Source: Eledone cirrhosa (Eukaryota). Taken from it: a stretch of 64,000 bases of DNA. The notes beneath the pieces are model-generated. The model worked only from the letters and a program-made list of their open reading frames with translations. It was not told the DNA's origin and made no database searches. The stretch spans positions 407,774,001 to 407,838,000 of the forward strand of contig OZ024740.1 in assembly GCA_964016885.1 (NCBI GenBank). The letters run 5' to 3'. The translations under genes were made by a program, and so were the position numbers. Every line of letters starts with the position of its first letter. The stretch's first letter is position 1. Positions 1-50,900 of this stretch are shown piece after piece.

Positions 1-326
<326 letters not shown>

Positions 327-447
327 GGAGGTGAGTTTTATTGTAGTACAATAAAGCAATGCAGATATCGGATAAGAAGCACTCTACAGTTTGTAGGACT
401 GGAGTATACATCATATAAGATCAAAAGATGGTTAAAGGAGTTCCATG

Positions 448-518
448 TATTTTATTATACGCATTTCAAAAACAAACATTATCATGCAATAATATTTGTG
501 TTTTCATCAGATAAAACA
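448..518 (-). ncRNA. Minimal type I hammerhead ribozyme
   Basis: Minus strand: TGTTTTAT-CTGATGA-[36 nt hairpin]-GAAA-TGCGTA-TA/ATAAAATA. Intact core, 8-bp stem I, near-palindromic stem III. Confidence 0.85.
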
Positions 519-1537
519 GGAGAACATGATATGAAGGCTAAAAAACACTTGTGGATAGTGCAGTTTTAAATCTACATATGAAAAGTGGTTTTAGATTGAT
601 GTGTGATATTGGGAAAAATATTTTATTTAGAGAGGGGGGGGTGGAAAGGATGAAAAAGGGGAGGAGATGAGAGGGAGAGATGGGTGATAGAGAGAAAGAG
701 ATAGTTTTTATAACTGAGAGGAGATATATTGTTTTACATAGAGAGGTTGAAAACCGTTGGAAGATAATGTATAAATTAAAAAAAATTTGAAAATTAACGA
801 AGGGAGGATATGTGCGAGGAAAAAATATTTTATTTAGGGAGGGTAATGTGGAAAGGATGAGAAAAGGGGGAGGAGATGAGAGTGAAGGTGGAGAGGGAGA
901 GATGGGTGATAGAGAGAAAGAGATAGTTTTTATAACTGAGAAAAAGATATATTGTTTTACATAGAGAGGTTGAGAACCGTTGGAAGATAATGTATAAATT
1001 AAAGGAATTTGAAAATTAACGAAGGGAATTTATGTATGAAGATAGAGAGAAAAAATAATAAATGTGGATGAATATTCTAACGTCAAAAAAAGTGTATGTT
1101 GATAAGTATTGTGGCAATTTCAAAATTAACGAAGAGAAAAATTATTAAGGTTTGTGTGTAGAAGGATTTGAGAAAAATAATGTGAAGTTAAAGTTTGTAT
1201 ATTGAAGGAATTGATAATATATGCGAATAAAGAGTTAATATGTATTAAGAATGAGTTCGTTGATGGGGAGAAAAAAATAATAAATTAAGGATGAAATTGA
1301 GATTAAAAAGATTTATGATAGAGAGAAAAAATAATAATGATTGCGGATGAATATTCTAACGTCAAAAAAACAAATGTATATGTTATGAAGGATTTTACAA
1401 GGTGAAGATAGAATGAGGGTAATGAGTAAACAAGTATTATAGAATGTATAATGCCCTTTAAAGTAAGGGTATATTTTAAAGAGGTGTATGTATATGTGCC
1501 TTTGAGAAAAGATTCTAAATTGATAACGAATTGAATA

Positions 1538-2671
1538 TTAACTGTATACTTTGTGAAAAGTCCTATGGAATTTATGCAGGCAGATAGAAAACAAATCTGT
1601 ACGTCTATTTATTATAGAATCTAGGTTAGAGATAATGGTAAATTTTTCATTTAGGCAGAGATTACAGATTTGAGATAGAGAGCTGTTCAAGTATGAGGAT
1701 GCAGAAGAAACCTTCTTCCAAAAGATGGTATATGTAATGTTTTTGTCTTTTAAGGACCATATGAGTTCTGAGAGAGCAGTGTTGGTTCTTTTAAGTTTGT
1801 ATTTGAAAAATGAATGATGATTATAGAGACGAGCTTTAAAAGAGGTGGAAGTGGAGCCAAAATAGGTGAAGGAATTGGTGCTAGTTATAATTTTACATTC
1901 ATAAATTAAGTTTTTATCGAGACAATGGTTGTTGAGAGGACATTTATTTTTAATGCGGCATTTGCAATTAGAGAGATTATTAATGAGTGACCTAGTGTTA
2001 TCTATAGAAGGAATTGGATTGGAGAAGTTGTTTGCGATAGGAATAATAGGAATAATAGTTTCTTGATTTAGAGTTGGATTATGAACATTTAGCGAAGTTG
2101 TGTTTGACGTTGTATTTGGGTTTACATAAGTTAGCCTAGGGTTTACAATGACGTCGGGAGTACTATTACTGTTATTATGAAATTCAATGTTGGAAGGAAG
2201 AGATTTAGTATTTAGTATTTTATTGTTGTGTTTAGAGATGATGTTGCAAATATTGGAGGATGTAGAATAAGAAAATTTGATGGTGTGTTTGTTAAATATT
2301 TTACTCTAGATATGTGAGGGAGGGAAGCATTTATTTAAGGCACTAAAAAATAATTTAGGAATATTGTTATTAATAGAGATGGAGAAAGGAGCATTATACC
2401 AGATTATGATTTTGTATCTAGGTCTTTTATTAAAATTATTGGAATGATCATGATTAATTATTCTACTGTAAGTTTTTTTAGAATTTGTTTCTTTACTATA
2501 TTTGATTTTATCTGGATAGCCGGCTTTAGAAAGTGCGTTATTATAGTAATTGGCGTTAGCATCAAAGATGTTTTTATTAGAGGATATGTTAGATATTCTT
2601 TTTCCAATATTACTAACTATAGCATTCTTGATATTGGTAGGATGGTTAGATTTAAAGTTAACATAATTTAG
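1538..2671 (-). pseudogene. PLE ORF C-terminal part (RT thumb, linker, GIY-YIG endonuclease, terminal Cys/His motif), one internal TAG
   Basis: Manual translation; absent from the ORF track because it has no Met. LNYVNFKSNHPTNIK...IIWYNAPFS...FNKHTIKFSYS...CKCRIKNKCPLNNHCLDKNLIYECKI...TYFGSTSTSFKARLYNH...ICNLCLNEK...LFSICLHK. Stop at 2306-2308. Confidence 0.9.
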
Positions 2672-2947
2672 TTTTCAAATTTTTTTTATTTTATAAATTA
2701 TCTTCCAACGGTTTTCAACCTCTCTATGTAAAACAATATATCTCCTCTCAGTTATAAAAACTATCTCTTTCTCTCTATCACCCATCTCTCCCTCTCATCT
2801 CCTCCCCTTTTTCATCCTTTCCACCCCCCCCCTCTCTAAATAAAATATTTTCCCCAATATCACACATCAATCTAAAACCACTTTTCATATGTTGATTTAA
2901 AACTGCACTATCCACAAGTGTTTTTTAGCCTTCATATCATGTTCTCC

Positions 2948-3018
2948 TGTTTTATCTTATGAAAACACAAATATTATTGCATGATGATGTTTGTTTTTGA
3001 AATGCGCATAATAAAATA
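2948..3018 (+). ncRNA. Hammerhead copy in the inverted pseudo-LTR, core mutated (CTTATGA)
   Basis: TGTTTTAT-CTTATGA-hairpin-GAAA-TGCGCA-TA/ATAAAATA. G-to-T change at 2958 in the catalytic core. Confidence 0.75.
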
Positions 3019-3065
3019 CATGGAACTCCTTTAACCATCTTTTGATCTTATATTATATATATATA

Positions 3066-6000
3066 TCATCATCATCATCATCATCATTTCACGTCCGCTT
3101 ATCCCTGCTTGCAAGGGTGGGACGGGTCTTATTCAGCACAGCATCTCTCCACTCGTCACGGTCCCTCGTCATCTCCACCGTGAGCTTCAATGATCTGAGG
3201 TCTGTTCTCACCACCTCCGCCCATGTTTTTCGTGGTCTACCTCTACCACGTCTTCCTTCAACTGGCAATTCCTGGCACTTCTTCACCCATCGGTCATCCT
3301 CCATGCGCATCACATGTCCATACCACCTCAGTCTCCTCTCCCGTACACTACGTTCTATCCCTCTCAGACACAATTTCTCTCTCAACACATTTATGCTGGG
3401 TCGTTCACGCACATTTACACTGCACATCCAACGGAGCATGCTTGCCTCATTTCTCTCCAGCCGTCGCATATCCTCTGCAGTTGCTGCCCATGTCTCACTA
3501 CCATGCAGCATCGCGCTCCTCACACAGGCATCATACAACCGGCCTTTCGTACGCAGGGAGAAACCCTTCTTCGTCAACAGAGGAAGCAGCTCCCTAAACT
3601 TCTTCCAACCCGTCCTTATTCTAGATACTATGGCCTCGGAACACCCTCCTCCCATGCTAATCTGATCTCCTAGCTACCGGAAGCTATCCACCACTTCTAT
3701 AGCGCCCTCTTGCATTTGAAAAATGTGTCTATCAGTGCGACTTCTACTGTCTAATTTCCCTGTACATCTACTGCATACATATTTCTCTGTTAGTTTGCCT
3801 GCTATCCTGCTACATCTCTTGTGTACCCAGGATCTGCATTGTGTGCATTTTATAGAATTTATGCCAGTTCCTTTTCTGCATATCGAACATGGCCATTTCC
3901 CTGACGGAATCAGGGTTTTGTCCTCTTTTCTACTCATCAACACTTTTGTCTTAGCTAGATTCACTCTCAGTCCTCTTGCTTCCAACTGCTGTTTCCATAG
4001 CCAGAATTTATTCTCTAGCTCCTCTACTGATTCTGCTATAAGAACCAGATCGTCAGTGTAGAGAAGTTCCCATGGATATCCAGTCTTAAACTCCTCTGTT
4101 ATGGCTTGGAGGACTATAATGAACAAGAGCGGGCTGAGGACCGAACCCTGATGTACTCCTACTTGTATCTGGAATTCCTCACTAAACTCCATTCCTACCC
4201 TGACTTTACTGAGAGTACCTCTGTACAAAGTTTGCACTGTCCTCACAAGCCATTCCTCAACACCTAGCTTCCTTAGGGACCACCAGATGACAGATCGGGG
4301 TACCCTATCAAAGGCCTTCTCTAGGTCAAAAAAGGCTAAGTATAGTGGCTTATTCTTCTCTAAGAACCTCTCTTGCAATTGTCTCACCAAGAAGAGGGCA
4401 TCTGTTGTACTCTTCCCAGGCACAAAACGAAACTGCATCTCATCTAGTTTGACCCTTTCTCTAATTAGTTGTGCTAAAATCCTTTCTGCCACTTTCATAA
4501 CCTGATCTATCAGTTTTATACCCCTATAATTGCTCCTCTCCAAAGCATCCCCTTTAACTTTGTAGCAATTTATGAGAATACTGCTGCACCAGTCTTTGGG
4601 TATGACACCACCATATATAGCCTGATTGATGATGCGTGCAACCAGTTTAGTGCCTACGTCCCCTGATGCCTTCAGCATCTCAGCAACTATTCCCGATGGT
4701 CCGGCAGCCTTACCATTTTTCATTTCGCTAATCGCCTCTTGGACCCTATATTCGTCAATCTCAATAGCTCGTCCCTCTGTCGGATCCACCAAGGGTAATT
4801 TCTCCACATTCATCAGTCTCTCATAATGACATTTCCAGGCCTCCTTTTTCTGATCATTCGTGACACTAAGTACACCGGCATCATCCCAGACACATTTATC
4901 TCCAACAACATCCTGATTTGCATTGACACACTGCCTTGCAATGTGGAACACCGCACGCCTCTGATCTTCCCGTCGCAGAACATTGGCAAACCTCCTACTC
5001 TCTGCCTCCCTGCGTGCTAAGTACACCTGACGTCTAGCTTCTCTCTTAGTGGCTGTATATTCTTCCCTACTCCCACCCTTTTTCCAAGCCTTTCATGCTA
5101 GTCTTTTGTCTCTAATAGCCTTATCTACTGTGCTGTTTCACCACCAGGGGGTCACTCTCTGTCTGGTTGGAGCTCTGCTCCAGCCACAGGTTTCATCAGT
5201 AGCCTGCAGCAAGTTGTCACGTAAGAAATTCCAGTTATTATCTATGTCATACGTGTCTAAATCGTCTTCTTTTTCGTCATATACATCTTGAAGGGCTTTC
5301 CTAAATTTGTATTTTAGTGAAAGGTCTTTTAGCTTCCAGACCTTTCTTCTCCACACCTTCCTATATGTCTCATTCCATCTCTTGCTTACTGAGATATCAC
5401 TAACAACTAACCTATGCTGTGGGGTACATTCTTCCCCAGGGTATGCCTTGGTATTAGACACTATCTGCCTGTCCCGCTGCCTAACTAGTAAGAAGTCAAT
5501 CTGGCTTATGTGCTCACCAGATTTGTAGGTTATTAGGTGATTGGCAGGTTTCTGGAAGTTTGTGTTGCAAATAGTCAATGTACCCGCATCACAAAATTCA
5601 AGAAGTCTCACTACTTCTTCATTTCTTAAACCGTAACCGTGCCCACCATGTACCCCAGTGTAACCATCCTGGAGCTGTCCAACATGACCATTGAAGTCTC
5701 CTGCTAGCATAACGATGTCTCCGTCCTCTGTCATTGCGGTTGTTTGCAAAAGTTGCTCATAAAAGCAGTCTTTCTCATCTTTGCCCAGGCCTGCTTGGGG
5801 AGCATAGACCGAGATGATTGTCAGTAGTCTCCTACCTACAACTAATCTAAGCTTAATTATTCGATTACTAACTCAAACTACCTCTATTGTCTTATTGATC
5901 CATTTCTCAGCCAGGAAAATGCCTACTCCCCCTAGCCCATCATCCTTACCTACCCAGAATAGCTTATAGCTAAGACGCTTGCCTACGACTAGTCTCGCAG

Positions 6001-6433
6001 AGGCACCTCTCCATCTCACCTCTTGCACGCAGCACACATCCACCTGCCTTCTCTCCAGCATCTCCGCTATTTCAGCAGATCTACCTCTGAGAGTGCCAAC
6101 ATTAAGTGTTGCAACTCTGAGATGCGATGTTGTTGTTCCTATTTGTTGCTGTGCTAATAAGAATTTTGGCATTGATACACTGGCTGGATGCCCTTCCTAA
6201 CACCAGCGCCACTTTACAGCATGGACTGGGTGCTTTTATTTGTGCCACCAGCACTAGAGAGGATGTTTTACTAGACTCAAGGGCCCTCTCTACCCCTCCA
6301 TTTTACAGCATGGTCATAAAAAAAAAAAAAAAAAAAAACTTATTGACATGACGCACACAGAAACACTCACACACCAACACTCATGCATACAAACCACAAC
6401 CACACACACGCCACTCACATACCAATACTCATT
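3066..6433 (-). mobile_element. RTE-clade LINE, subfamily A, near full length, disrupted (copy A1)
   Basis: ORF pieces 5873-6172 (APE: VATLNVGTL, CVQEVRW), 5138-5749 (GDFNGH, SQIDF), 3674-5026 (RT, YTDD), 3089-3655. (GAT)n tail directly after the stop. 5' extent taken from identity with copy A2. Confidence 0.95.
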
Positions 6434-7329: not shown

Positions 7330-9651
7330 CATCATCATCATCATCAGGTTTAGCGTCCGTGTTCCACGCTTGCATGGGTTTGGACGGGGGTTTTCCCACT
7401 TGAGGCAAGAGTGGTTGTCTTGCTCGCATAGGACTGTCTGGCGGGTTTTCTACAGTTGGATGCCCTTCCTAACACCAACCACATTTACAGTGTGGGGCTG
7501 GGAGGTTTTTACCGTGTTGCCTACACGGCCACATTACAGCGTGGACTGTCTGGCGGGTTTTCTACAGCTGGATGCCCTTCCTAACACCAACCACATTTAC
7601 AGTGTGGGGCTGGGAGATTTTTACCGTGTTGCCTACACGGCCACATTTACAGCGTGGACTGTGTGTTTTTTTGTCGTGACATCTACACGATCTCATTTGT
7701 TTCGGCCTGGATGTTGTGGGACCAACATAACTTTACATTGAAAGGGGCGGTGTGGATGGGGTGGAGGTGGTGGGACGGGGGGTGTTTTGATAGAGATGCC
7801 TACTGACTGTAGTAGGTTTTTACTTTGTATTTAGGTAAGGCGGGTCTTCTCTATTACTGAGTACCGCCAAAGGTCTCGGTCCAGTGACATTGTCTTGGAG
7901 AGGTGTAAGCGTGTGAGGTCGGAATTTATCAGCTCGTCCCATGTTTTTTCTGGGTCTGCCTACTCCGTGGCTACCGTCTATCTTTATTTCCCTGCACTTT
8001 GTTATACAGCTGTCGTCTTTCATGCGCATCACGTGACCGTACCAACGTAGCCTTCTCTCGAGTAAACAACATCTGATCCCTCTTATTTCTAATTTTTTCC
8101 TTAGTTCGTTTATGCTTTGCCGTTCACGTATATTACTATTGCACATCCAGCGGAGCATGCAAGCTTCGTTCCTCTCTAGTCTGCGTATATCCTCTGCACA
8201 CAATGCCCAGGTCTCACTGCCATGCAGCATTGCTGTTCGTATGGAGGCATCGTATAACCTGCCTTTCATTTTTAGGGAGAACCCTCTAGCGGCTAATAGT
8301 GGTATAAGCTCTCTGAACTTTTTCCATCCAGTTCTGACTCTAGCTACTGTACTTTCAGAGCACCCTCCCCCACTGTTGATTTTGTCACCCAGGTAACGGA
8401 AGCTGTCCACTATTTCTATAGAACCCTCTGCGCAGTTGAAGGAGCTAGTATTTTGTGGGCACTTGCTGCTACTTATTGCACCAGAGCACCGGCCATATGT
8501 AAAATCTATGTTCTTAGTTAGCTTACCTGTGATCCCACTACATCTTTTATGCACCCATACTTTGCATTTGGGACATAAAATAGAGTTTCTACCTACGCCT
8601 TTCCTACACACTGAGCATGTCCATTTCCCAGAAGGGACCGCCGCCTTATTTTCTTTCCTACAAACTAGAACTTTAGTCTTAGCCAGGTTAATTTTAAGGC
8701 CTTTTGATTCTAGGCCGTGCTTCCATGTTTGGAATTTCTTCTCTAGTTCGGTCATTGATTCAGCTATGAGCATTAGATCATCTGCGTATAGGAGTTCCCA
8801 TGGGCAGCCGGGCTTGAACTCCTCTGTTATAGCCTGAAGGGCAATAATAAATAGTAGGGGGCTAAGAACAGAGCCCTGATGGACACCAACTTTTACGCTA
8901 AACTCTTCACTATATTCGTTGTTAATTCTAACCTTACTGACTGTTTCTTTATACATGGCTTGTATAGCTCTCACAAGCCATTTGTTGACACCTAGTTTTC
9001 TAAGAGACCACCAGATAATGGAACGGGGGACTCTGTCGAAGGCTTTCTCCAAGTCGACGAAAGCTAAGTATAGGGGTTTACTTTTAGCTAGGTACTTCTC
9101 CTGTAGTTGTCGTACAATGAAAAGAGCGTCTGTGGTACTTTTGCCTGACACAAACCCGAACTGCATTTCATCTAGATCAATTCTCTCTCTGATTAGTTGC
9201 GCTATTACTTTTTCCGTGACCTTCATGACCTGGTCGATTAATTTAATGCCTCTATAGTTACTCCTATCTAGGGCATCTCCTTTTCCCTTATAGCAGTTAA
9301 CGATGATGCTGCTACGCCAGTCCTTCGGAACAACCCCATTCTGTACGACTTGGTTAACTATCCAGGTGACCATGGTGTGTCCCACCGAACCAGATGCCTT
9401 CAGCATCTCAGCAACTATTTCCGAAGGACCAGCCGCCTTACCCGTCTTCATATCTTTGATTGCCTTGCTTAATGTACTACCCTGGCCTAACACTGCTGGT
9501 CCCTCTATTGGGTCGATGTGGGGGAGACTGTCTTTCTCCCATTTGTTCTCCTCATTTAGAAGCCTTTCATAGTGACACTTCCAAGCTACCTTCTTATCAG
9601 CATCGGTTATGGCAAGTATGCCATCATCGTTAAGTACACACTTCTCCCCGA
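7330..9651 (-). mobile_element. RTE LINE subfamily C, 5'-truncated
   Basis: RT ORF (YADD) nearly identical to the 3' part of 44334-47579. Homology stops at the (TA)n at 9652. Frameshift near 7945. 3' UTR has a 112-bp duplication and a (GAT)n tail. Confidence 0.95.
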
Positions 9652-9652
9652 C

Positions 9653-9738
<86 letters not shown>

Positions 9739-9920
9739 ATGAAGGCATACCATATTTTAATTTGGTATCCCTGAAATATGTATAATGAAATAAATATGGT
9801 TTTATAAATATAGTTTCCATTTATTTAATATCATATATATATATATATATACATATATATATACATATATATATATACATATATATATATACATATATAT
9901 ATATACATATATATATATAC

Positions 9921-10946: not shown

Positions 10947-11293
10947 GGAGGCACGTGGCTTAGTGGTTAGAGCATTGGCCTTGCAATCGAATGGTTGTAA
11001 GTTCAATTCTCAGACTGGGTGATGTGTTGTTTCTTTGAGCAAGACACTTTATTTCACATTGCTCTAGTTTACTCAGCTGTAGAAATGAGATGATAGGACT
11101 GGGGTCCCTATCATTCCACTGCAAAGTGGTCGTGGAGGTGCCACGGCAAAAAAGCACCCAGCACTCACTGTAAATGAGGTTGGTGTTAGGAAGGGCATCC
11201 AGCTGTAGAAATCAAGCCAGAATCAGTTCCTGTCCCACCCAAGCAGGGAAAAGCTGACGTAAAAATGATGATGATGATGATGATGATGATGAT
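10947..11293 (+). mobile_element. tRNA-derived CORE-SINE (family 1) with RTE-A-type tail
   Basis: A box TGGCTTAGTGG, B box GTTCAATTC, CORE-like TTGAGCAAGACACTTT...AGTTTACTCAGCTGTAGAAATGAG, RTE-derived body, (GAT)n tail. Confidence 0.9.
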
Positions 11294-12072: not shown

Positions 12073-15000
12073 ACATCATCATCATCATCATCATCATCAT
12101 TTTACGTCTGCTTTTCCCTGCTTGCAAGGGTGGGACGGGTCTTATTCAGCACAGCATCTCTCCACTCGTCACGGTCCCTCGTCATCTCCACCGTGAGCTT
12201 CAGTGATCTGAGGTCTGTTCTCACCACATCCGCCCATGTTTTTCGTGGTCTACCTCTACCACGTCTTCCTTCAACTGGCAATTCCTGGCACTTCTTCACC
12301 CATCGGTCATCCTCCATGCGCATCACATGTCCATACCACATCAGTCTCCTCTCCCGTACACTACATTCTATCCCTCTCAGACACAGTTTCTCTCTCAACA
12401 CATTTATGCTGGGTCGTTCACGCACATTTACACTGCACATCCAACGGAGCATGCTTGCCTCATTTCTCTCCAGCCGTCGCATATCCTCTGCAGTTGCTGC
12501 CCATGTCTCACTACCATGCAGCATCGCGTTCCTCACACAGGCATCATACAACCGGCCTTTCGTACGCAGGGAGAAACACTTCTTCGTCAACAGAGGAAGC
12601 AGCTCCCTAAACTTCTTCCAACCCGTCCTTATTCTAGATACTATGGCCTCGGAACACCCTCCTCCCATGCTAATCTGATCTCCTAGGTACCGGAAGCTAT
12701 CCACCACTTCTATAGCGCCCTCATGCATTTGAAAAATGTGTCTATCAGTGCGACTTCTACTGTCTAATTTCCCTGTACATCTACTGCATACATATTTCTC
12801 CCTACCTGTTAGTTTGCCTCCTATCCCGCTACATCTCTTGTGTACCCAGGATCTGCATTGTGTGCATTTTATAGAATTTATGCCAGTTTCTTTTCTGCAT
12901 ATCGAACATGGCCATTTCCCTGATGGAATCAGGGTTTTGTCCTCTTTTCTACTCATCAACACTTTTGTCTTAGCTAGATTCACTCTCAGTCCTCTTGCTT
13001 CCAACTGCTGTTTCCATAGCCAGAATTTATTCTCTAGTTCCTCTACTGATTCTGCTATAAGAACCAGATCGTCAGCATAGAGAAGTTCCCATGGACAGCC
13101 AGTCTTAAACTCCTCTGTTATGGCTTGGAGGACTATAATGAACAAGAGCGGGCTGAGGACCGAACCCTGATGTACTCCTACTTGTGTCTGGAATTCCTCA
13201 CTAAACTCCATTCCTACCCTGACTTTACTGAGAGTACCTCTGTACAAAGTTTGCACTGTCCTCACAAGCCATTCCTCAACACCTAGCTTCCTTAGGGACA
13301 ACCAGATGACAGATTGGGGTACCCTATCAAAGGCCTTCTCTAGGTCAAAAAAGGCTAAGTATAGTGGCTTATTCTTTTCTAAGAACCCCTCTTGCAATTG
13401 TCTCACCAAGAAGAGGGCATCTGTTGTACTCTTCCCAAGCACAAAACCAAACTGCATCTCATCTAGTTTGACCCTTTCTCTAATTAGTTGTGCTAAAATC
13501 CTTTCTGCCACTTTCATAACCTGATCTATCAGTTTTATACCCCTATAATTGCTCCTCTCCAAAGCATCCCCTTTACCTTTGTAGCAATTTATAAGAATAC
13601 TGCTGCATCAGTCTTTGGATATGACACCACCATATATAGCCTGATTGATGATGCGTGCAACCAGTTTAGTGCCTACGTCCCCTGATGCCTTCAGCATCTC
13701 AGCAACTATTCCCGATGGTCCGGCAGCCTTACCATTTTTCATTTCCCTAATCGCCTCTTGGACCCTATATTCGTCAATCTCAATAGCTGGTCTCTCTGTC
13801 GGATCTACCAAGAGTAATTTCTCTCTCTCCCATTCGTTCTCCACATTCATCAGTCTCTCATAATGACATTTCCAGGCCTCCTTTTTCTGATCATTCATGA
13901 CACTAAGTACACCGGCGTCATCCCAGACACATTTATCTCCAACAACATCCTGATTTGCATTGGCACATTGCCTTGCAATATGGAACACCGCACGCTTCTG
14001 ATCTTCCTGTCGCAGAACATTGGCAAACCTCCTACTCTCTACCTCCCTGCGTGCTAAGTACACCTGACGTCTAGCTTCTCTCTTAGTGGCTGTATATTCT
14101 TCCCTACTCCCACCCTTTTTCCAAGCCTTCCATGCTAGTCTTTTGTCTCTAATAGCCTTATCTACTGTGCTGTTCCACCACCAGGTCACTCTCTGTCTGA
14201 TTGGAGCTCTGCTCCAGCCACAGGTTTCATCAGTAGCCTGCAGCAAGTTGTCACGTAAGAAATTCCAGTTATTATCTATGTCATACGTGTCTAAATCGTC
14301 TTCTTTTTCGTCATATACATCTTGAAGGGCTTTCCTAAATTTGTATTTTAGTGAAAGGTCTTTTAGCTTCCAAACCTTTCTTCTCCACACCTTCCTCTAT
14401 GTCTCATTCCATCTCTTGCTTACTGAGATATCACTAACAACTAACCTATGCTGTGGGGTACATTCTTCCCCAGGGTATGCCTTGGTATTAGACACTATCT
14501 GCCTGTCCCGCTGCCTAACTAGTAAGAAGTCAATCTGGCTTATGTGCTCACCAGATTTGTAGGTTATTAGATGATTGGCAGGTTTCTGGAAGTTTGTGTT
14601 GCAAATAGTCAATGTACCCGCATCACAAAATTCAAGAAGTCTCACTACTTCTTCATTTCTTGAACCGTAACCGTGCCCACCATGTACCCCAGTGTAACCA
14701 TCCTGGAGCTGTCCAACATGACCATTGAAGTCTCCTGCTAGCATAACGATGTCTCCGTCCTCTGTCATTGCGGTTGTTTGCAAAAGTTGCTCATAAAAGC
14801 AGTCTTTCTCATCTTTGCCTAGGCCTGCTTGGGAGCATAGGCCGAGATGATTGTCAGTAGTCTCCTACCTACAACTAATCTAAGCTTAATTATTCGATTA
14901 CTAACTCAAACTACCTCTATTGTCTTATTGATCCATTTCTCAGCCAGGAAAATGCCTACTCCCCCTAGCCCATCATCCTTACCTACCCAGAATAGCTTAT

Positions 15001-17139: not shown

Positions 17140-17179
<40 letters not shown>

Positions 17180-17738: not shown

Positions 17739-17773
17739 GTAGATAAATATATATATATATATATACATAATAT

Positions 17774-17969
17774 ATAAGATGAAAAGATGGTTAAAAGAGT
17801 TCCATGTATTTTATTATGCGCATTTCAAAAACAAATATCATCATGCAATAACATTTGTGTTTTCATCAGATAAAATAGGAAGACATGATATGAAGGTTAA
17901 AAACACTTGTGGATAGTGCAGTTTTAAATCAACATAAGCTTTATTGTACTACAATAAAACTCACCTCCT
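17774..17969 (+). mobile_element. Mini-PLE of the same family as 327-3052
   Basis: 17774-17936 matches about 414-578. 17938-17969 is the reverse complement of 327-358. TA tracts on both sides. Confidence 0.85.
17807..17877 (-). ncRNA. Minimal type I hammerhead ribozyme, intact
   Basis: TATTTTAT-CTGATGA-[36 nt hairpin]-GAAA-TGCGCA-TA/ATAAAATA. Confidence 0.88.
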
Positions 17970-17971
17970 AC

Positions 17972-19363: not shown

Positions 19364-19767
19364 TTGGGCTTGCAATTGAAAGGTTGTGAGTTCAATTCTC
19401 AGACCGGGTGATGTGTTATTTCCTTGAGCAAGACACTTTATTTCACATTGCTCCAGTTTACTCAGCTGTAAAAATGAGATGATAGGACTGGGGTCCATAT
19501 CATTCCACTGCAAAGTGGTCGTGGAGGTGCCACAGCAAAAAAGCACCCAGGCCACACTGTAATGTGGACGTTTAGGCGCCACGGAAAAAAAGCACCCAGC
19601 ACTCACTGTAAATGAGGTTGGTGTTAGGATGTATAAATCAAGTCAGAATCAGTTCCTGTATGAGCAAGACAAGGTCAGCCGACTGGACACTGCCCACAAC
19701 AGGACAACCCGTCTAACCCATGCTAGCATGGAAGAACGGATGTAAAACGATGATGATGATGATGATG
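19364..19767 (+). mobile_element. CORE-SINE family 1, slightly 5'-truncated, RTE-B-type tail, long flanking duplication
   Basis: Body as 10947. The 3' part matches 31620-31740. Flanked by a 57-bp direct repeat. Confidence 0.9.
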
Positions 19768-28049: not shown

Positions 28050-31000
28050 TTATTTACCATGCGACCCTCAGTTCCTACCTCACATCCCTCCCCCCCCCAC
28101 CCCCACATACCACCATAGTCTATTCGACCAATCAAACCTAGCATGCCATTTCCACTGCTGCTGCTACTACCTGCCTAACTAACTCTCTCCTCCTCTGGCG
28201 CATCCCAACACACCCTGCCATTACCCCACCACCACTGTTCTTCTAGCCCTCAATTTTCCCACCGTTATGGATGGATGAGCTGAGAATACATTTGAGCAAC
28301 TCTGAATCAATAGATGAAATATGAATCTGCGAGCTACCAAGCACCCACGTGAAGCGCCAACCCAGAGACCCTCCCCTACGAGTGTCGACAAATGCCCAAA
28401 ACTCCGAGTTGGTACCATAAATGTAGGCTCAATGAAAGGAAGAGCAGGAGAAATCGTAGAAATGCTAGAGCGAAAGGAAGTTGATGTATGCTATGTGCAA
28501 GAGACTAGATGGAGAGGAGGGTCTGCTAGAGTCCTTGTAGGAAAAAGCCAGTGCTACAAATTTTTCTGGGTGGGAAATGACGATGGGATGGGTGGTGTAG
28601 GTATACTACTAGCTGACAAGTGGGTAGATAAAGTAATCTCAGTGTACAGGGTAAATGCAAGAATCATTAAACTCAGACTAGTCCTGAATAAGACAATTAC
28701 CACAATAATATCAGCTTACGCACCCCAATCGGGGCTGCCAGACGAACTTAAGGATAGGTTTTACGAGTCCCTAATACACACTACTGCTCTAACAGACGAC
28801 AAGGACTTCCTAATCATTGCAGGAGATTTTAACGGACACGTAGGTAAACACTGCGACGGCTTCAATAGAGTACATGGAGGCCATGGAGTTGGCACAAGGA
28901 ATGAGGAAGGATTCAGACTTCTAGAATTCTGCGACGCCAATGACATGTCGATATGTAACACAAACTTTAAAAAACCTGACAACCACCTGATCACCTATAG
29001 ATCAGGGGAGCACTCTAGTCAGTTAGATTTTATCCTCATCAGAGGACGTGACAGATGGACGGTCGTAAACACAAAAGCCTTCCCTAGTGAGGAATGTACA
29101 TCCCAACATAGCTTAGTTGTCAGCGACCTCACGGTCAGAACTAGACGAGCCCTGAAACAGAGGCCAACCTGGAGAAGAAAGATCTGGAAGCTGAAAGTCC
29201 CCTCAACCAGTAACAGATTTAAAGATATTTTACTCAACGCCTACGACAGTAAAGAAGAACAGATAGAGACATTTAACGTAGAAGAGAACTGGGAGTTCCT
29301 AAAAAATAACTTACTAGAGGCGACGGATGGGGTTTGTGGCTGGAGTAAGACCTCAAGCAGGAGGAGAGTGACTTGGTGGTGGAACAATAAGGTAGATGAA
29401 GCAGTCAAGGCCAAGAGACAGGCATGGAAAGAATGGAAGAACGGGGGGAGCAGGGTACATTACATAGAGACCAAGAGGGAAGCTAGGCGACAAGTATACT
29501 TAGCTAGGAGGGAAGCAGAGGATAGAAAATTCAAGCATGTTTTACAACGTGAGGACCAGAAACAGGAGGTATTCAAGATTGCGAGGCAGTGTGTCAGAGA
29601 TAGTTGTGATGTCATTGGAGAGAAGTGTATCCGGAATGATAAAGGTGAGCTTGCCCTCACAAGTGCTGAGAAGAAAGATGCATGGAAGAGTCATTATGAT
29701 AGATTACTAAATGAGGAGAATGCATGGGAAGAAGAGACCCTACCCCATGTAGACCCTATAGAGGGACCAGCAGTACAAGTCAGCGGCAGCATAGTAAGTA
29801 AGGCAATCAGAGATATGAAGATGGAGAAGGCAACCGGTCCATCGGGTATAGCTGCCGAGATGCTGAAGGCATCTGGGTCTGTAGGTCACACTATAACCAC
29901 ACGTATCGTTAACCAGGTAATACTAGAAGGGGCCATACCAAAAGATTGGTGCAGTAGCATCATTGTCAACTGCTACAAAGGTAAAGGCGATGCACTAGAT
30001 AGAGGAAACTATAGAGGTATAAAGTTGATGGACCAGGTCATGAAAGTAACAGAAAGAGTTATAGCACAGCTGATTAGGGACCGGGTGAATATAGACGAGA
30101 TGCAATTTGGGTTTGTACCAGGGAGAGGCACCACTGATGCCCTCTTCCTTGTGAGGCAATTACAGGAAAAGTACCTAGCTAAAAGTAAGCCACTCTACTT
30201 GGCATTTGTCGACCTTGAGAAAGCCTTTGACAGAGTTCCACGTGCAGTAATCTGGTGGGCTCTTAGAAAACTAGGAGTAGATGAATGGCTTGTGAAAGCG
30301 GTACAAGCCATGTATAGGGGAGCAGTCAGCAAAGTTAGGATTAGCAATGAGTATAGCGAGGAATTTAGCGTACAGGTTGGGGTCCACCAGGGCTCTGTTC
30401 TTAGCCCTCTCCTGTTCATCATAGTCCTGCAGGCAATAACGGAGGAGTTTAAGACCGGATGCCCATGGGAACTCCTGTATGCTGATGACCTCGCACTCAT
30501 AGCTGAATCTATGGTAGAACTAGAGAATAAATTCCAAACCTGGAAGCAGGGACTAGAGAGAAAGGGCCTCAAAGTCAACATGACAAAGACTAAGGTCCTT
30601 GTAAGTAGACGAGAAAACAGAACCCAGATCCCCTCAGGGAAATGGCCTTGCTCAGTATGTAGGAAAGGTGTAGGTAGGAACTCCATTCTCTGCCCCAAAT
30701 GCAAACAATGGGTACACAAGAGATGTAGCGGGATCTCAGGAAGCTTAATTAAGAATATAGGATTCACATGCAGCAGCTGTGCTGAAACAGCAAGCAAACA
30801 GCCACAGGAAACAAGTACCACCAATCTCTGGGAGGGCCCTGTAGAAACAGTAGACAGCTTCTGCTACCTAGGTGACCAAATTAGCAACGGAGGTGGGTGC
30901 TCAGAAAGTACAATAACTAGGGTAAGAACGGGATGGAAGAAGTTTAGGGAACTACTACCACTGCTAGCTGCAAAAGGCTTCTCCCTCAGAATGAAAGGCA

Positions 31001-31741
31001 GACTGTATGATGCGTGTATCCGAACAGCGATGTTGCATGGTAGTGAGACCTGGGCGCTGAAGGTGGAAGACTTACGTAGATTAGAGAGAAACGAAGCCTG
31101 CATGCTCCGATGGATGTGTAACAGTAATATACGTGAACGACAAAGCATAAAGGAATTGAGAGAGAGACTGAGCATAAGAGGAATCAAATGCTGCGTGCAG
31201 GAGAGGCAGTTACGCTGGTATGGACATGTGATGCGTATGAAGGATGACAGCTGCATAAAAAGGTGCAGAGCACTAGAAGTTGATGGAAACCGCGGAGTGG
31301 GGAGACCCAAGATGACTTGGGATGAGGTGATAAAAGCCGACCTTACCCAACTACACCTCTCAAAGACAATGACACACGACCGTGACTTCTGGCGTCACGC
31401 AGTAATACAGGGTACCCGACCTCCCATGGGTACATGCTGAAGCATATAAACAATATGCCCCCACTCCCCCACCGCAAGGTGGTCGTGGAGGTGCCACGGC
31501 AAAAAAGCACCCAGCCCACACTGTAAAGTGGACGTGTAGGCGCCACGAAAAAGCACCCAGCACTCAGTGTAAATGAGGTTGGTGTTAGGAAGGGCATCCA
31601 GGTGTAGAAATCAAGCCAGATCAGTTCCTGTATGGGCAGGACAAGGTCAGCCGACTGGACACTGCCCCCAACAGGACAACCCATCTAACCCATGCTAGCG
31701 TGGAAGAATGGACGTAAAACAGTGATGATGATGATGATGAT
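28050..31741 (+). mobile_element. RTE LINE subfamily B, apparently full length
   Basis: C-rich 5' UTR, intact ORF, ~300-bp structured 3' UTR, (GAT)n tail into (TA)n. 5' boundary approximate. Confidence 0.95.
28321..31440 (+). CDS. RTE polyprotein: APE endonuclease and reverse transcriptase with PHD-like insertion (1039 aa, intact)
   Basis: GTINVGSM, VQETRW, GDFNGH, SQHSLV (APE); QFGF, DLEKAFD, GVHQGSVLSP, YADD, FCYLG (RT). Confidence 0.95.
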   Translation: MNLRATKHPREAPTQRPSPTSVDKCPKLRVGTINVGSMKGRAGEIVEMLERKEVDVCYVQETRWRGGSARVLVGKSQCYKFFWVGNDDGMGGVGILLADKWVDKVISVYRVNARIIKLRLVLNKTITTIISAYAPQSGLPDELKDRFYESLIHTTALTDDKDFLIIAGDFNGHVGKHCDGFNRVHGGHGVGTRNEEGFRLLEFCDANDMSICNTNFKKPDNHLITYRSGEHSSQLDFILIRGRDRWTVVNTKAFPSEECTSQHSLVVSDLTVRTRRALKQRPTWRRKIWKLKVPSTSNRFKDILLNAYDSKEEQIETFNVEENWEFLKNNLLEATDGVCGWSKTSSRRRVTWWWNNKVDEAVKAKRQAWKEWKNGGSRVHYIETKREARRQVYLARREAEDRKFKHVLQREDQKQEVFKIARQCVRDSCDVIGEKCIRNDKGELALTSAEKKDAWKSHYDRLLNEENAWEEETLPHVDPIEGPAVQVSGSIVSKAIRDMKMEKATGPSGIAAEMLKASGSVGHTITTRIVNQVILEGAIPKDWCSSIIVNCYKGKGDALDRGNYRGIKLMDQVMKVTERVIAQLIRDRVNIDEMQFGFVPGRGTTDALFLVRQLQEKYLAKSKPLYLAFVDLEKAFDRVPRAVIWWALRKLGVDEWLVKAVQAMYRGAVSKVRISNEYSEEFSVQVGVHQGSVLSPLLFIIVLQAITEEFKTGCPWELLYADDLALIAESMVELENKFQTWKQGLERKGLKVNMTKTKVLVSRRENRTQIPSGKWPCSVCRKGVGRNSILCPKCKQWVHKRCSGISGSLIKNIGFTCSSCAETASKQPQETSTTNLWEGPVETVDSFCYLGDQISNGGGCSESTITRVRTGWKKFRELLPLLAAKGFSLRMKGRLYDACIRTAMLHGSETWALKVEDLRRLERNEACMLRWMCNSNIRERQSIKELRERLSIRGIKCCVQERQLRWYGHVMRMKDDSCIKRCRALEVDGNRGVGRPKMTWDEVIKADLTQLHLSKTMTHDRDFWRHAVIQGTRPPMGTC

Positions 31742-35822: not shown

Positions 35823-36247
35823 GAAGGCGCATGGTTTAGTGGTTAGAGCATTGGGCTTGCAATCGAAAGGTTGTGAGTTCAATTCTCGGACCGGGTGATG
35901 AGTTGTTTCCTTGAGCAAGACACTTTATTTCACATTGCTCCAGTTTACTCAGCTGTAGAAATGAGATGATAGGACTGGGGTCCCTATCATTCCACTGCAA
36001 AGTGGTCGTGGAGGTGCCATGGCAAAAAAGCACCCAGCCCACACTGTAAAGTGGACGTGTAGGCGCCACGGAAAAAAAGCACCCAGCACTCACTGTAAAT
36101 GAGGTTGATGTTAGGAAGGGCATCCAGCTGTAGAAATCAAGCCAGAATCAGTTCCCGTATGAGCAAGACAAGGTCAGCTGACTGGACACTGCCCACAACA
36201 GCATGGAAGAACAGACGTAAAACGGTGATGATGATGATGATGATGAT
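35823..36247 (+). mobile_element. CORE-SINE family 1, RTE-B-type tail
   Basis: Match to 19364-19767 with full tRNA head. Confidence 0.9.
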
Positions 36248-37480: not shown

Positions 37481-40320
37481 ATCATCATCATCATCATCAT
37501 CGTTTAACGTCCATGTTCCACGCTTGCATGGGTTTGGACGGGAGTTTTCCCACTTGAGGCAAGAGTGGTTGACTTGCTTGCATAGGACTGCCTGGCGGGT
37601 TTTTTTACAGCTGGATGCCCTTCCTAACACCAACCACATTTACAGTGTGGGACTGGAAGGTTTTTACCGTGTTGCCTACACGACCACATTACAGCGTGGA
37701 CTGTGTGTTTTTTTGTCGTGACATCTACACGATCTCATTTGTTTCGGCCTGGATATTGTGGTACCAACATAACTTTACATTGAAAGGGCGGTGTGGATGG
37801 TGTGGGGGTGGTGGGACGGGGGAGTATTTTGTTAGAGATGCCTACTGACTGTAGTAGGTTTTACTTTGTATTTAGGTAAGGCGGGTCTTCTCTATTACTG
37901 AGTACCGCCAAAGGTCTCGGTCCAGTGACATTGTCTTGGAGAGGTGTAAGTGTGTGAGGTCGGAATTTATCAGCTCGTTCCAGGTTTTTCTGGGTCTGCC
38001 TACTCCGTAGCTACCGTCCATCTTTATTGCCCTGCACTTTGTTATACAGCTGTCGTCTTTCATGCACATCACGTGACCATACCAACGTAGCCTTCTCTCG
38101 AGTAAACAACATCTGATCCCTCTTATTTCTAATTTTTTCCTTAGTTCGTTTATGCTTTGCCGTTCACGTATATTACTATTACACATCCAGCGGAGCATGC
38201 AAGCTTCGTTCCTTTCTAGTCTGCGTATATCCTCTGCACACAATGCCCAGGTCTCGCTGCCATGCAACATTGCTGTTCGTATGCAGGCATCATACAACCT
38301 GCCTTTCATTTTTAGGGAGAACCCTTTAGCGGCTAATAGTGGTATAAGCTCTCTGAACTTTTTCCATCCAGTTCTGACTCTAGCTACTGTACTTTCAGAG
38401 CACCCTCCCCCACTGCTGATTTTGTCACCCAGGTAACGGAAGCTGTCCACTATTTCTATAGAACCTCTGTGCAATTGAAAGAGCTAGTATTTTGTGGGCA
38501 CTTGCTGCTACTTATTGCACCAGAGCACCGGCCACATGTAAAATCTATGTTCTTAGTTAGCTTACCTGTGATCCCACTACATCTTTTATGCACCCATACT
38601 TTGCATTTGGGACATAAAATGGAGTTTCTGCCTACTCCTTTCCTACACACTGAGCTTGGCCACTTCCCGGAAGGGACCGCTGCCTTATTTTCTTTCTTAC
38701 AAACTAGAACTTTAGTCTTAGCCAGGTTAATTTTAAGGCCTTTTGATTCTAGGCCGTGCTTCCATGTTTGGAATTTCTTCTCTAGCTTGGCCATTGATTC
38801 AGCTATGAGCGTTTGATCATCTGCGTATAGGAGTTCCCATGGGCAGCCGGGCTTGAACTCCTCTGTTATAGCCTGAAGGGCAATAATAAATAGTAGGGGG
38901 CTAAGAACAGAGCCCTGATGGACACCAACTTTTACGCTAAATTCTTCACTATATTCGTTGTTAATTCTAACCTTGCTGACTGTTTCTTTATACATGGCTG
39001 GTATAGCTCTCACAAGCCATTCGTCAACACCTAGTTTTCTAAGAGCCCACCAGATAATGGAATGGGGGACTCTGTCAAAGGCTTTCTCCAAGTCGACAAA
39101 AGCTAAGTATAGGGGTTTACTTTTAGCTAGGTACTTCTCCTGTAGTTGTCGTACAATGAAAAGAGCGTCTGTGGTACTTTTGCCTGACACAAACCCGAAC
39201 TGCATTTCATCTAGATCAATTCTCTCTCTGATTAGTTGTGCTATTACTTTTTCCGTGACCTTCATGACCTGGTCAATTAATTTAATGCCTCTATAGTTAC
39301 TCCTATCTAGGGCATCTCCTTTACCCTTATAACAGTTAATGATGATGCTGCTACGCCAGTCCTTCGGAACAACCCCATTCTGTACGACTTGGTTTACTAT
39401 CCGGGTGACCATGGTGTGTCCCACCGTTCCAGATGCCTTCAGCATCTCAGCAACTATTTCCGAAGGCCCAGCCACCTTACCCGTCTTCATATCTTTGATT
39501 GCCTTACTTATTATACTAACCTCGACTAACACTGCTGGTCCCTCTATTGGGTCGATGTGGGGGAGACTGTCTTTCTCCCATTTATTCTCCTCATTTAGTA
39601 GCCTTTCGTAGTGACACTTCCAAGCTACCTTCTTATCAGCGTCGGTGATGGCAAGTATGCCATCATCATTAAGGACACACTTCTCCCCGACAATATCACG
39701 GTTTTCCTTGACACATTGCCTAGCAATCCTGAACACCTCACGTTTTTGGTGCTCGCGTTGTAGAACATGCTTGAACTTTCTTTCCTCTGCTTCACTTCTT
39801 GCGAAGTACACTTGTCTCCTAGCTTCCCTCCTGGCCACTTGATAGTCTTCTCTACTTCCCCCATCCCACCATATTTTCGAAGCCTGCTTTTTGGCCTTAA
39901 TTGACCCCTCCACCTTACTGTTCCACCACCATGTTACTCTCCTCCTGCCTACAGGCCTGCTCCAGCCACAGACTTCGTCTGCCACCATCAGCAGGTTTGC
40001 TTTCAGGAATTCCCACTGTTCCTCTATATTGTACGACTCTAATTGCTCTTCCTTACTGTCAAAAGCATCAAGTAGTATGCTTTTAAATTTATTTCTGGCT
40101 GTGGGGTCCTTTAGCTTCCATATTTTTCTCCTGAGGATAGTCCTCTTCTGCTGTCTAGTACGTCTCGTCCTGACTATTAGGTCACTAATTATCAGTCTAT
40201 GTTGGGAGGTGCATTCTTCATGGGGGAGGGATTTAGTGTTTACAACAGACACTCTGTCACGTCTTCTTGTAAGGATATAATCTACCTGGCTTGTGTGTTC
40301 CCCCGATCTATAGGTGATCA
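37481..40320 (-). mobile_element. RTE subfamily C, 5'-truncated, frameshifted
   Basis: ORFs 38456-40252 and 37872-38474; single-unit 3' UTR; (GAT)n tail. Confidence 0.95.
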
Positions 40321-41081
40321 GGCTTACTTTTAGCTAGGTACTTTTCCTGTAATTGCCTCACAAGGAAGAGGGCATCAGTGGTGCCTCTTCCTGGTACAAA
40401 CCCAAATTGCATCTCGTCTATATTCACCCGGTCCCTAATCAGCTGTGCTATAACGCTTTCTGTTACTTTCATGACCTGGTCCATCAACTTTATACCTCTA
40501 TAGTTTCCTCTATCTAGTGCATCGCCTTTACCTTTGTAGCAGTTGACAATGATGCTACTGCACCAATCTTTTGGTATGGCCCCTTCTAGTATTACCTGGT
40601 TAATGATACGTGTGGTTATAGTGTGACCTACAGACTCAGATGCCTTCAGCATCTCGGCAGCTATACCCGATGGACCGGTTGCCTTCCCCATCTTCATATC
40701 TTTGATTGCCTTACTTACTACGCTGCTGCTGACTTGTACTGCTGGTCCCTCTATAGGGTCTACTTGGGGTAGGGTCTCTTCTTCCCATGCATTCTCCTCA
40801 TTTAGTAATCTATCATAATGACTCTTCCATGCATCTTTCTTCTCAGCACTTGTGAGGGCAAGCTCACCTTTATCATTCCGGATACACTTCTCTCCAATGA
40901 CATCACAACTATCTCTGACACACTGCCTCGCAATCTTGAATACCTCCTGCTTCTGGTCCTCACGTTGTAAAACATGCTTGAATTTTCTATCCTCTGCTTC
41001 CCTCCTAGCTAAGTATACTTGTCGCCTAGCTTCCCTCTTGGTCTCTATGTAATGTACCCTGCTCCCCCCGTTCTTCCATTC
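40321..41081 (-). mobile_element. RTE subfamily B internal fragment fused to the 5' end of the C copy
   Basis: Near-identical to 29431-30191. Confidence 0.92.
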
Positions 41082-41197
41082 TATATATATATATATATAT
41101 ATATAAGTAAAAGGTAAAGACAAATAACAACAAAACCCATTGGTACAGTATATGGAAGGGATATATTAGGTTAATGCTTGATATAGCAGGAAGAGGG

Positions 41198-41959: not shown

Positions 41960-43004
41960 ATTGTGTGAGTATGGACGCGACAGATTCGGCCGAGGTCACA
42001 GATCTTATAGGATTATTCCTACTATTTAAACTCACCGAAATATTTCCCGCATTCGGCAGTGGATTGTACCGGGATGATGGGCTCCTCACCCTCAAAGGGT
42101 ACAACCCCAGTAGTACAGACCGGGTCCGTAAACAACTAATCAACTTCTTCCGGGACTGGGGATTTAAAATCACCCTACAAACGTCCCTAACCCGAGTCAA
42201 TTTCCTGGACGTTACCCTTAACATCGAAAGTGATCTATACTACCCATACAAGAAACCAAATGACAACCTGCACTACATCCACTGCTGCTCTGACAATCCT
42301 AGAAACATCACCAATAACCTGGTTAAAAACATCTCCCTCCGCTTATCTCGTTTGTCCGCTAATAAGCAGATATTCGACGAACGCGCGCCTCATTACAACC
42401 AGGCCCTCAAGCGGAGTGACTTCCGGGAGGAAATATCCTTTTATCCAGCTTCCCTTAGCGGATCCAGCAGGTGACACCGCCGCTCACGCAACGTAATGTG
42501 GTTCAATCCTCCCCATAATGCCGAGGTGGGAAAATTTTCTTTGGACTCCTCGAAAAACACTTCCCACTACAACACCGCTACCACAAAATAATCAACAAAA
42601 ACACCATCAAACTCTCCTACAGCACCACACCTAACTCCTCACAAAACATCGTCTCCTCAAACAACAAAAAACTCAACCCCTATGGAAGAAATAACCTAGA
42701 CATCAGTGGAGAGCCTACCAGCAGGTGTAACTGCCCTGATAGATCTACGTGCCCCTTCAACAACAAATGCCGAGAACATAACGTGATCTACCAATGCAAC
42801 GTGAGGACGGACACCTCCAACAAAGCTTATATAGGATTAACCGCGTGTGACTTCAAGACCCGGCTATACCAACACCGACATACTTTCCGAAACCCGGTCC
42901 GGCGACATGCCACTACACTTTCGGGCCACATCTGGGACCTCCAAGATAATAATATAACCTACAATCTCACTTGGAGCTTACTGTCCAAAGCTAACTCTTA
43001 CATG
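41960..43004 (+). pseudogene. PLE (Naiad-type) RT C-half plus GIY-YIG, disrupted, cut by a SINE
   Basis: DSAEVTDLIGLFLL...GLYRDDGL...VNFLDVTLN...PYKKPND; RNVMWFNPP; CNCPDRSTCPFNNKC...VIYQC...YIGLTACDFKTRLYQH. Confidence 0.9.
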
Positions 43005-43329
43005 GGAGGTACATAGCTTAGTGGTTTGAGCATTGGCCTTGCAATCAAAAGGTTGTGAGTTCAATTCTCAGACCGGGTGATGTGTTGTTTCCTTGAGCAA
43101 GACACTTTATTTCACATTGCTCCAGTTTACTCAGCTGTAGAAATGAGATGATAGAGACTGGGGTCACTATCATTCCACTGCAAAGTGGTCGTGGAGGTGC
43201 CACGGCAAAAAAGCACCCAGCACTCACTGTAAATGAGGTTGGTGTTAGGAAGGGCATCCAGCTGTAGAAATCAAGCCAGAATCAGTTCCCGTCCCACCCT
43301 TGCAAGCAGGGAAAAGCGGACGTAAAATG

Positions 43330-48353: not shown

Positions 48354-48362
48354 CATATATAT

Positions 48363-48701
48363 ATGGCTTAGTGGTTAGAGCATTGGCCTTGCAATCGAAA
48401 GTTGTGAGTTCAATTCTCAGACCGGGTGATGTGTTGTTTCCTTGAGCAAGACACTTTATTTCACATTGCTCCAGTTTACTCAGCTGTAGAAATGAGATGA
48501 TAGGGACTGGGATCTCTATCATTCCACTGCAAAGTGGTCGTGGAGGTGCCACGGCAAAAAAGCACCCAGCACTCACTGTAAATGAGGTTGTTGTTAGGAA
48601 GGGCATCCAGCTGTAGAAATCAAGCCAGAATCAGTTCCCGTCCCACCCTTGCAAGCAGGGAAAAGTGGACGTAAAATGATGATGATGATGATGATGATGA
48701 T
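48363..48701 (+). mobile_element. CORE-SINE family 1, RTE-A-type tail
   Basis: Match to 10947-11293. A tail-only insertion follows at 48989-49042. Confidence 0.9.
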
Positions 48702-50512: not shown

Positions 50513-50900
50513 GGAGGCACATGGCTTAGTGGTTAGAGCATTGGGCTTGCATTCGAAAGGTTGTGAGTTCAATTCTCAGACCGGGTGATGTGTTGTTTCC
50601 TTGAGCAAGATACTTTATTTCACATTGCTCCAGTTTACTCAGCTGTAGAAATGAGATGATAGGGCTGGTGTCCCTATCATTCCACTGCAAAATGGTCGTG
50701 GAGGTGCCAGGGCAAAAAAATCACCAAGCCCACACTGTAAAGTGGACGTGTAGGCGCCACGAAAAAAAAGCACCCAGCACTCAATGCAAAAGAGGTTGGT
50801 GTTAGGAAGGGCATCCAGCTGTAGAAATCAAGCCAGAATCAGTTCCCGTCCCACCCTTGCAAGCAGGGAAAAGCGGACGTAAAATGATGATGATGATGAT
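50513..50900 (+). mobile_element. CORE-SINE family 1, two internal units, RTE-A-type tail
   Basis: Match to the other copies. Confidence 0.9.

Follow-up and report, generated by a model that had tools for sequence, protein, structure and literature searches.

The window, that is the whole 64-kb stretch of DNA analysed here, contains two insertions of one retrotransposon and three copies of a type I hammerhead motif. Judged by sequence, the motif belongs to the pLTR, the terminal repeat, of a Hydra-clade Penelope-like element (PLE). The first-pass annotation had described the motif without placing it in this element; in fact, it is part of a retrotransposon and not a free-standing RNA family. 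The features are, in order of position:

325-412, minus strand: optional 3' tail of about 88 nt, ending in (TA)n; the two other copies are without it
379-405, minus strand: bulged hairpin at the tail start, 50 nt past the cut, made of ACTC, an inner CAGT-ACTG hairpin, a bulge of 2 nt and GAGT-GC; belongs to a motif that Hydra elements conserve
413-578, minus strand: pLTR core, bounded by the recurrent 5' edge and the first 3' end; contains the hammerhead
448-518, minus strand: type I hammerhead whose core is intact and whose palindrome carries a single C-to-U change; cleavage predicted after 456
579-1537, minus strand: 3' UTR of about 1 kb, with internal duplications 1035-818 / 813-611 (85%) and 1370-1317 / 1091-1041 (91%)
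1538-2674, minus strand: Hydra-clade PLE ORF, 5'-truncated, with RT thumb, low-complexity linker, CxCX5C and GIY-YIG endonuclease; in-frame stop at 2306-2308
2668-3053, plus strand: inverted 5'-truncated copy, 97% identical to 797-405, tail-less, ending in (TA)n
2948-3018, plus strand: type I hammerhead with core change G5U at 2958, predicted inactive; would-be cut after 3010
17772-17937, minus strand: solo pLTR beginning at the recurrent 5' edge, tail-less, ending in (TA)n
17807-17877, minus strand: type I hammerhead with intact core and perfect 8-nt palindrome; predicted cut after 17815
17938-17970, plus strand: inverted 33-nt tail end (equal to 357-325), running into (TA)n

Insertion 1 (325-3053) consists of a tailed, truncated element standing back to back with an inverted tail-less copy, and insertion 2 (17772-17970) is a tail-less solo pLTR back to back with the inverted final 33 nt of the tail; (TA)n is reached at all four of their ends. 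Inverted truncated partners, a tail at one end and (TA)n flanks are the described PLE pattern, the accessible text of PMC8557442 giving an inverted 5'-truncated partner, a one-ended tail and (TA)n targets for Hydra PLEs. Both insertions thus show the Hydra-clade characters of (TA)n insertion, a hammerhead near the 3' end, an inverted truncated partner and a one-ended tail. The window copies are truncated products, not donors, of an abundant, high-copy family: 10,491 contigs of run X1 lie on the element. Five sequencing runs were found to contain the sequence, no RNA run being listed among them, which carries no weight as to expression. Among 15 listed joints out of 100, 13 lead to 2883-2891, where the 17807 copy has its start as well; we infer that this edge is the pLTR start, and it is probably the 5' end of the transcript. 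As for the tail, a near-perfect inverted repeat (356-338, minus strand; 8-9 bp) stands right before its end and is the only part of it kept in the 17938-17970 piece. The tail also carries a 30-codon open frame, in a region that is 5' UTR in related full-length loci.

The 448 motif is continuous with the broken ORF at 2674-1538 and lies about 1 kb downstream of it. With E 0.001 as the limit, the last 140 residues of this ORF match 3,999 relatives, and both ORF pieces match the full-length homolog P0170 (E 1e-19 and 5e-30), thumb then endonuclease, in collinear order. RWK/RWR, DKT/DKS and YRDDG are present in full-length members of related clusters, RWK and DKT being seen in homologs P0170, P0176, P0192 and P0200; the window has lost the N-terminal part of the RT, where RWK and DKT lie, by 5' truncation. 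Its translation retains CKCRIKNKC (CxCX5C), CNLC-x2-EK (CxxC) and N-RR...CLH (CxH), and CCHH is absent; the Hydra-clade marks given in section 11 of PMC8557442 are a CxCX5C linker, CxxC and CxH beside conserved E and N, and no CCHH. Pfam had no match for either ORF piece, a word-based search for longer proteins found none, viral contigs contained no relative of the element, and the exact family pattern had 0 matches in metagenome contigs. The protein tree was built on thumb and endonuclease and took in Hydra-like rows only, the core RT being missing from the window protein, which falls on a long, unplaced branch among 30 relatives; the tree therefore does not link the long stem II described below to the group with stem II of 18-25 nt.

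Other repeats share the window, and their content suggests an animal host. A fragment of a different Hydra-like family at 41965-43013 (plus strand) runs from RT core to endonuclease, has one stop and one frameshift and is cut off by a tRNA-like repeat; no hammerhead was found downstream of it. The endonuclease end of a third Hydra-like family (17671-17400, minus strand) adjoins the 17807 copy across a (TA)n run and ends in (TA)n near 17170; no hammerhead was found with it either. An unrelated hammerhead of min-HHR type lies at 41233-41198 (minus strand), with an extra A after the core, G10.1-C11.1, a 4-bp stem II, an ACGU palindrome and a GUU site. It has no Rfam match. The insert that contains it measures about 200 nt, is flanked on either side by a (TA)n run and probably represents the 3' end of a further PLE family. 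A SINE-like repeat of about 240 nt, 92-96% identical between copies (43005-43250, 48360-48599, 10947-11191, 18874-18630, 35830-36050, 50513-50741 and 19364-19562), has tRNA-like heads scoring just below the Rfam threshold. LINE copies (AP endonuclease, RT, PHD finger after RT) occupy 3089-6196, 7820-9820, 12102-14864, 28318-31440, 38456-41165 and 44334-47669, those starting at 28318 and 44334 with open frames of more than 1000 codons.

Each hammerhead consists, in order, of an 8-nt stem I 5' arm, CUGAUGA, a 36-nt stem II insert, GAA, AUGCGCAU (replaced by AUGCGUAU in the 448 copy), A17 and the stem I 3' arm. Stem II comprises 15 pairs, interrupted at pair 4 by a C-U mismatch and closed by a GCAU loop, its pairs being intact in all three copies. 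Around the core, three helices can form with stem I open and every pair possible in each copy, helix III having 2 bp in the monomer and 8 bp in the dimer. Membership was judged on the type I core list of PMC3088659 (C3 U4 G5 A6 N7 G8 A9 / G12 A13 A14 / A15.1-U16.1 / H17), which is complete in the 448 and 17807 copies and fails at G5 in the 2948 copy. The first-pass annotation had correctly located the three copies (448-518 minus, 2948-3018 plus, 17807-17877 minus) and read their anatomy, with an 8-bp stem I, a 15-bp stem II, an AUA cleavage triplet and the G5-to-U change that leaves the 2948 copy core-defective. It was also right that stem III is palindromic, but the 2-bp stem with a GCGC cap that it drew is better read as an 8-nt perfect palindrome. 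Nor is the motif a minimal hammerhead, as it had been called: the published min-HHR has no helix III insert, and the window motif fits instead the palindromic-helix-III variant in the available text of PMC4209133.

The whole motif contains only 2-3 G-C pairs. Its first stem II pair is A10.1-U11.1, replacing G10.1-C11.1, which is common and not obligatory; in 18 of 30 related hammerheads this position is likewise not G-C. A descriptor demanding an intact core, the stem II base, 4 stem III pairs and at least 4 stem I pairs matched twice in the window and not once in 6.4 Mb of order-2 Markov sequence built from it, and we reject a chance motif on this ground. Rfam found no hammerhead in the window. 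This null is uninformative, because ordinary Hydra hammerheads, present in each of 10 related loci, were likewise missed by Rfam at gathering score in 10 of 10.

How unusual is the motif? We examined 79 related loci, fetched from the best 80 of 317 confirmed relatives of the full-length homologs, and found a type I hammerhead in 59 of them, 50 being distinct once one false match inside an ORF was left out. The stem II inserts of these 50 measure 10-25 nt, against 36 nt in the window, whose motif is thus an outlier, and their triplets are GUA (35), GUU (8), GUC (6) and AUA (1). The single AUA case, L074:2271, has a short stem II, so the AUA triplet and the long stem II are not tied. A published table of Hydra hammerheads (PMC8557442, in its accessible part) has 26 rows, with stem II inserts that we counted at 12-26 nt, GUH in 26 of 26 and AUA in none. 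Related inserts run to 25 nt, and in L058 a stem I arm identical to that of the 17807 copy goes together with a stem II of 23 nt, so the window motif is the long end of a continuum and not a new architecture. DNA similarity between the window pLTR and the 79 loci is limited to short matches, the best at E 0.005.

Every Hydra element described is known to have a hammerhead. Those in File S2 of PMC8557442 resemble ours in being type I, near the 3' end, with a palindromic or near-palindromic stem III region of 8-10 nt; they also share the (TA)n targets and, as for Penelope-13_HM, the inverted 5'-truncated partner. Their 3' UTR is a few hundred bases long, against about 1.1 kb in the window family. 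By eye, this family is neither Hydra-1_Obim nor any File S7 consensus among those compared, and two 12-letter window motifs are absent from the accessible supplement, in which line breaks can hide matches. The min-HHRs and palindromic-helix-III variants of metazoan PLEs (PMC4209133) have in common with it the pLTR location, the dimer design and a longer-than-canonical helix II, but the hammerheads in the part of that paper available have a helix II of 6-8 bp, G10.1-C11.1, an extra base at 9/10.1 and a helix I of 2-5 bp, whereas the window motif has 15 bp, A10.1-U11.1 and 8 bp. On sequence grounds, it is a long-stem, AUA variant of the known Hydra PLE hammerhead and new as such, its cleavage being predicted. 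A long-stem Hydra hammerhead is not described in the literature searched; most subscription papers, Repbase reports and the supplements of PMC4209133 and PMC11167929 lay outside it and may bear on novelty. In the accessible text of the clade-defining paper (PMC8557442), core searches used a spacer of 7-17 nt, and spacers of 35-50 nt were termed 'half core', as in eight Naiad elements. A clean example with a 36-nt stem II suggests that descriptors with 7-17 nt spacers miss real motifs. The eight Naiads marked HHR_half_core in File S1 may themselves be long-stem hammerheads.

Among the three copies, 6 of 71 positions vary, one in the core and five in pairs. Each of the five stem changes affects one side of its pair only, four turning A-U into G-U and one turning G-C into G-U, and none is compensatory, which rejects compensatory covariation among these copies. 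The differences had been called structure-preserving, and pairing is indeed kept at five of five; a transition would preserve pairing at 31 of 54 paired positions, and the five-of-five outcome has P = 0.054 if all changes are transitions, 0.013 if 75% are and 0.004 if 60% are. As evidence for selection, this variation is weak because the same six changes include a core-breaking one. With the core mutated in 1 of 3, three copies are too few to show core conservation.

Could such a motif cleave? In the monomer, helix III amounts to two A-U pairs with a predicted probability near 0, and the three-way fold has an ensemble probability of 2-4 x 10^-5. The upper 12 pairs of stem II are predicted to be stable (pair probability 0.86-1.0), its base pairs with a probability of 0.3-0.5 and can slip, and stem I can extend beyond an internal loop. 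The stem lengths (15-bp stem II, 8-bp stem I) do not fit the canonical loop I-loop II contact, and we identified no alternative one. In dimers, all 6 pairings place the double hammerhead no further than 0.6-1.0 kcal/mol from the MFE and pair the palindrome with a probability of 0.85-0.96, and the MFE of the 17807 dimer itself has double-hammerhead topology. Scrambling the palindrome changes the dimer MFE to -29.5 kcal/mol, against -33.3 kcal/mol intact, so most of the predicted dimer stability does not come from the palindrome. By sequence, the 17807 copy is the best candidate, as had been proposed, with its intact core, its perfect palindrome and a duplex of -10.5 kcal/mol against -6.5 for the 448 copy. 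A local cis dimer is unlikely, since the 448 and 2948 copies oppose each other within a 394-bp inverted repeat and the 17807 copy is 17 kb away, no same-strand tandem copies in the window being closer than that. All three copies read through the predicted cut site, which implies a template that was uncut or re-joined.

The motif sequence and its location within the element were observed here, as were the clade motifs and the two alternative 3' ends. We think it likely that this is a type I hammerhead of the terminal repeat of a high-copy Hydra-clade PLE, which would cleave after AUA slowly, either as a palindrome-paired dimer or helped by protein. A dimer or protein-assisted fold is likely because stem III is an 8-nt palindrome. 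A tandem pLTR-ORF-pLTR transcript would bring two hammerheads together; the AUGCGCAU palindromes would pair into an 8-bp helix III and the stems I would exchange, creating two active sites, while the long A-U-rich stem II would be a plain stabilising extension of the 3-11 bp stem of relatives. The earlier reading as a PLE hammerhead with a palindromic stem III is supported; that such hammerheads cleave as dimers is published, but as low activity only, PMC4209133 reporting, in its accessible text, PLE hammerheads that are inactive as monomers and weak as dimers. In the available portion of PMC11167929, an anole PLE hammerhead cut only with protein present, and, in that of PMC1636495, natural AUA hammerheads cleave, the slowest among four triplets tested.

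We give an appreciable but clearly smaller chance to a Hydra PLE hammerhead that is without useful catalysis in the window family, its fold persisting because it serves the pLTR structurally or in protein binding, or simply because the copies are young. The weak A-U-rich stems, A10.1-U11.1, the AUA site, the slip-prone base of stem II and the read-through of the cut by all copies would fit such a loss, as would the anole PLE, whose catalytic mutants did not impair insertion in vitro and which showed no RNA ends at the cut site (PMC11167929, accessible text). However, all core nucleotides and A15.1-U16.1 have been kept though stems I-III, the 15.2-16.2 pair among them (U-A in the window, C-G in 49 of 50), differ from those of relatives, and the palindrome is still perfect. 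Cleavage as a monomer, with the long stem II pre-organising the core and a new tertiary contact between its mismatch region and the internal loop beyond stem I, seems to us distinctly improbable: the stable upper stem II and the extendable stem I would suit it, and an axolotl hammerhead with a 2-bp helix III reached 22% cleavage as a monomer (PMC7229834, available part), but a helix III of two A-U pairs is predicted hardly ever to form and the perfect palindrome points to dimer pairing. Finally, we see very little chance that the motif belongs to a non-autonomous retrozyme or satellite unit yielding small circular RNA. The short solo pLTR at 17772-17937 would fit one, retrozymes have been reported as pLTR-derived (bioRxiv 10.64898/2026.07.22.740005, accessible text), and non-LTR retrozymes (PMC7229834) share the type I hammerhead and low G+C; they differ by tandem arrays of 170-400 nt, and we reject a retrozyme array here, as head-to-tail ORF-less units are absent from the 64-kb window and a PLE ORF adjoins the 448 copy without a break.

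The two alternative 3' ends lead from the hammerhead to the sequence that follows it. Of the 58 hammerhead instances with enough sequence, the window included, 45 show a bulged hairpin (GCTC...NN-GAGCAC) no more than 80 nt from the cut; 7 others reach (TA)n too early for it and 6 match neither description. This was a sequence-only pattern, and it matched 2 of 58 reverse strands and 1.8% of shuffles. The first hairpin copy lies 38-61 nt past the cut, and a second follows 44-81 nt later in 30 instances. Across 58 distinct hairpin copies, which are not independent and include a few second copies whose parsing began at a CTC too far upstream, the base that follows NCTC and the one that precedes the bulge form C-G in 32, T-A in 21, T-G in 2 and G-C in 1 and are unpaired in 2, and shifted registers pair in 2, 2, 4 and 15 of the 58. 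In the first copy, this pair changes on both sides at least 4 times (FastTree, 36 loci). In 50 of the 58 the outer pair is G-C; the window has A-U at this place, and L002 has U-A. The hairpin covaries across families, and the same shape can be seen by eye in three published consensi (PMC8557442, accessible part). Support comes from the family comparison, because the single-strand fold of the window hairpin alone is unremarkable (z -0.58, outer stem in another register).

Where do copies end? Insertions stop a few bases short of either hairpin copy. Eight of 18 same-family pairs part before their sequences end: five stop 2-5 nt before a hairpin copy, one 12 nt before one and two where the reference has no motif. 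The two tail-less window copies stop 7 nt before the hairpin, and the second hairpin of the window element would fall just past 325. In the available text of PMC11167929, the tail of the anole element is the stretch between two RT starts, which suggests that each hairpin positions an RT start. By this analogy, the hairpins likely set the two RT starts that make the PLE 'tail', acting as RNA or DNA. Reverse transcription would be primed at nicked (TA)n DNA and begin at one or the other U-A-rich patch, the first 42 nt and the second about 130 nt past the cut and each just 5' of a conserved bulged hairpin, and the choice of patch would yield copies without or with the tail. With a slight lean in its favour, we envision a Hydra PLE RNA module made of a hammerhead and two hairpins (RCTC-Y...R-NN-GAGYAC) bound by the RT-endonuclease, each hairpin placing an RT start on a 5' U-A patch that anneals to nicked (TA)n.

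The anole PAc Poseidon (PMC11167929, available text) is comparable in having a hammerhead upstream of two internal RT starts, whose spacing makes an optional tail, and AT-rich targets. Its RT starts belong to an AC-rich stem-loop within the ORF and its tail is 30-40 nt, whereas the tail of the window family is about 88 nt and the ends are found just before a duplicated GCTC...GAGCAC hairpin in the 5' UTR. Hammerheads in PLEs being established, the twin hairpin is more novel than the hammerhead itself; it is not described in the literature searched, which included word searches of the accessible parts of PMC8557442 and of the retrozyme preprint, with most subscription papers, Repbase reports and several supplements outside it. 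For the internal choice of RT start by PLEs, the twin covarying hairpin offers a short, mutable candidate signal in the Hydra clade. If the module is true, the window family would show it to be compatible with a stem II of 15 bp, with an AUA site and with an outer hairpin pair swapped to A-U, and one RNA signal would explain both the PLE 'tail' and the (TA)n bias of the Hydra clade.
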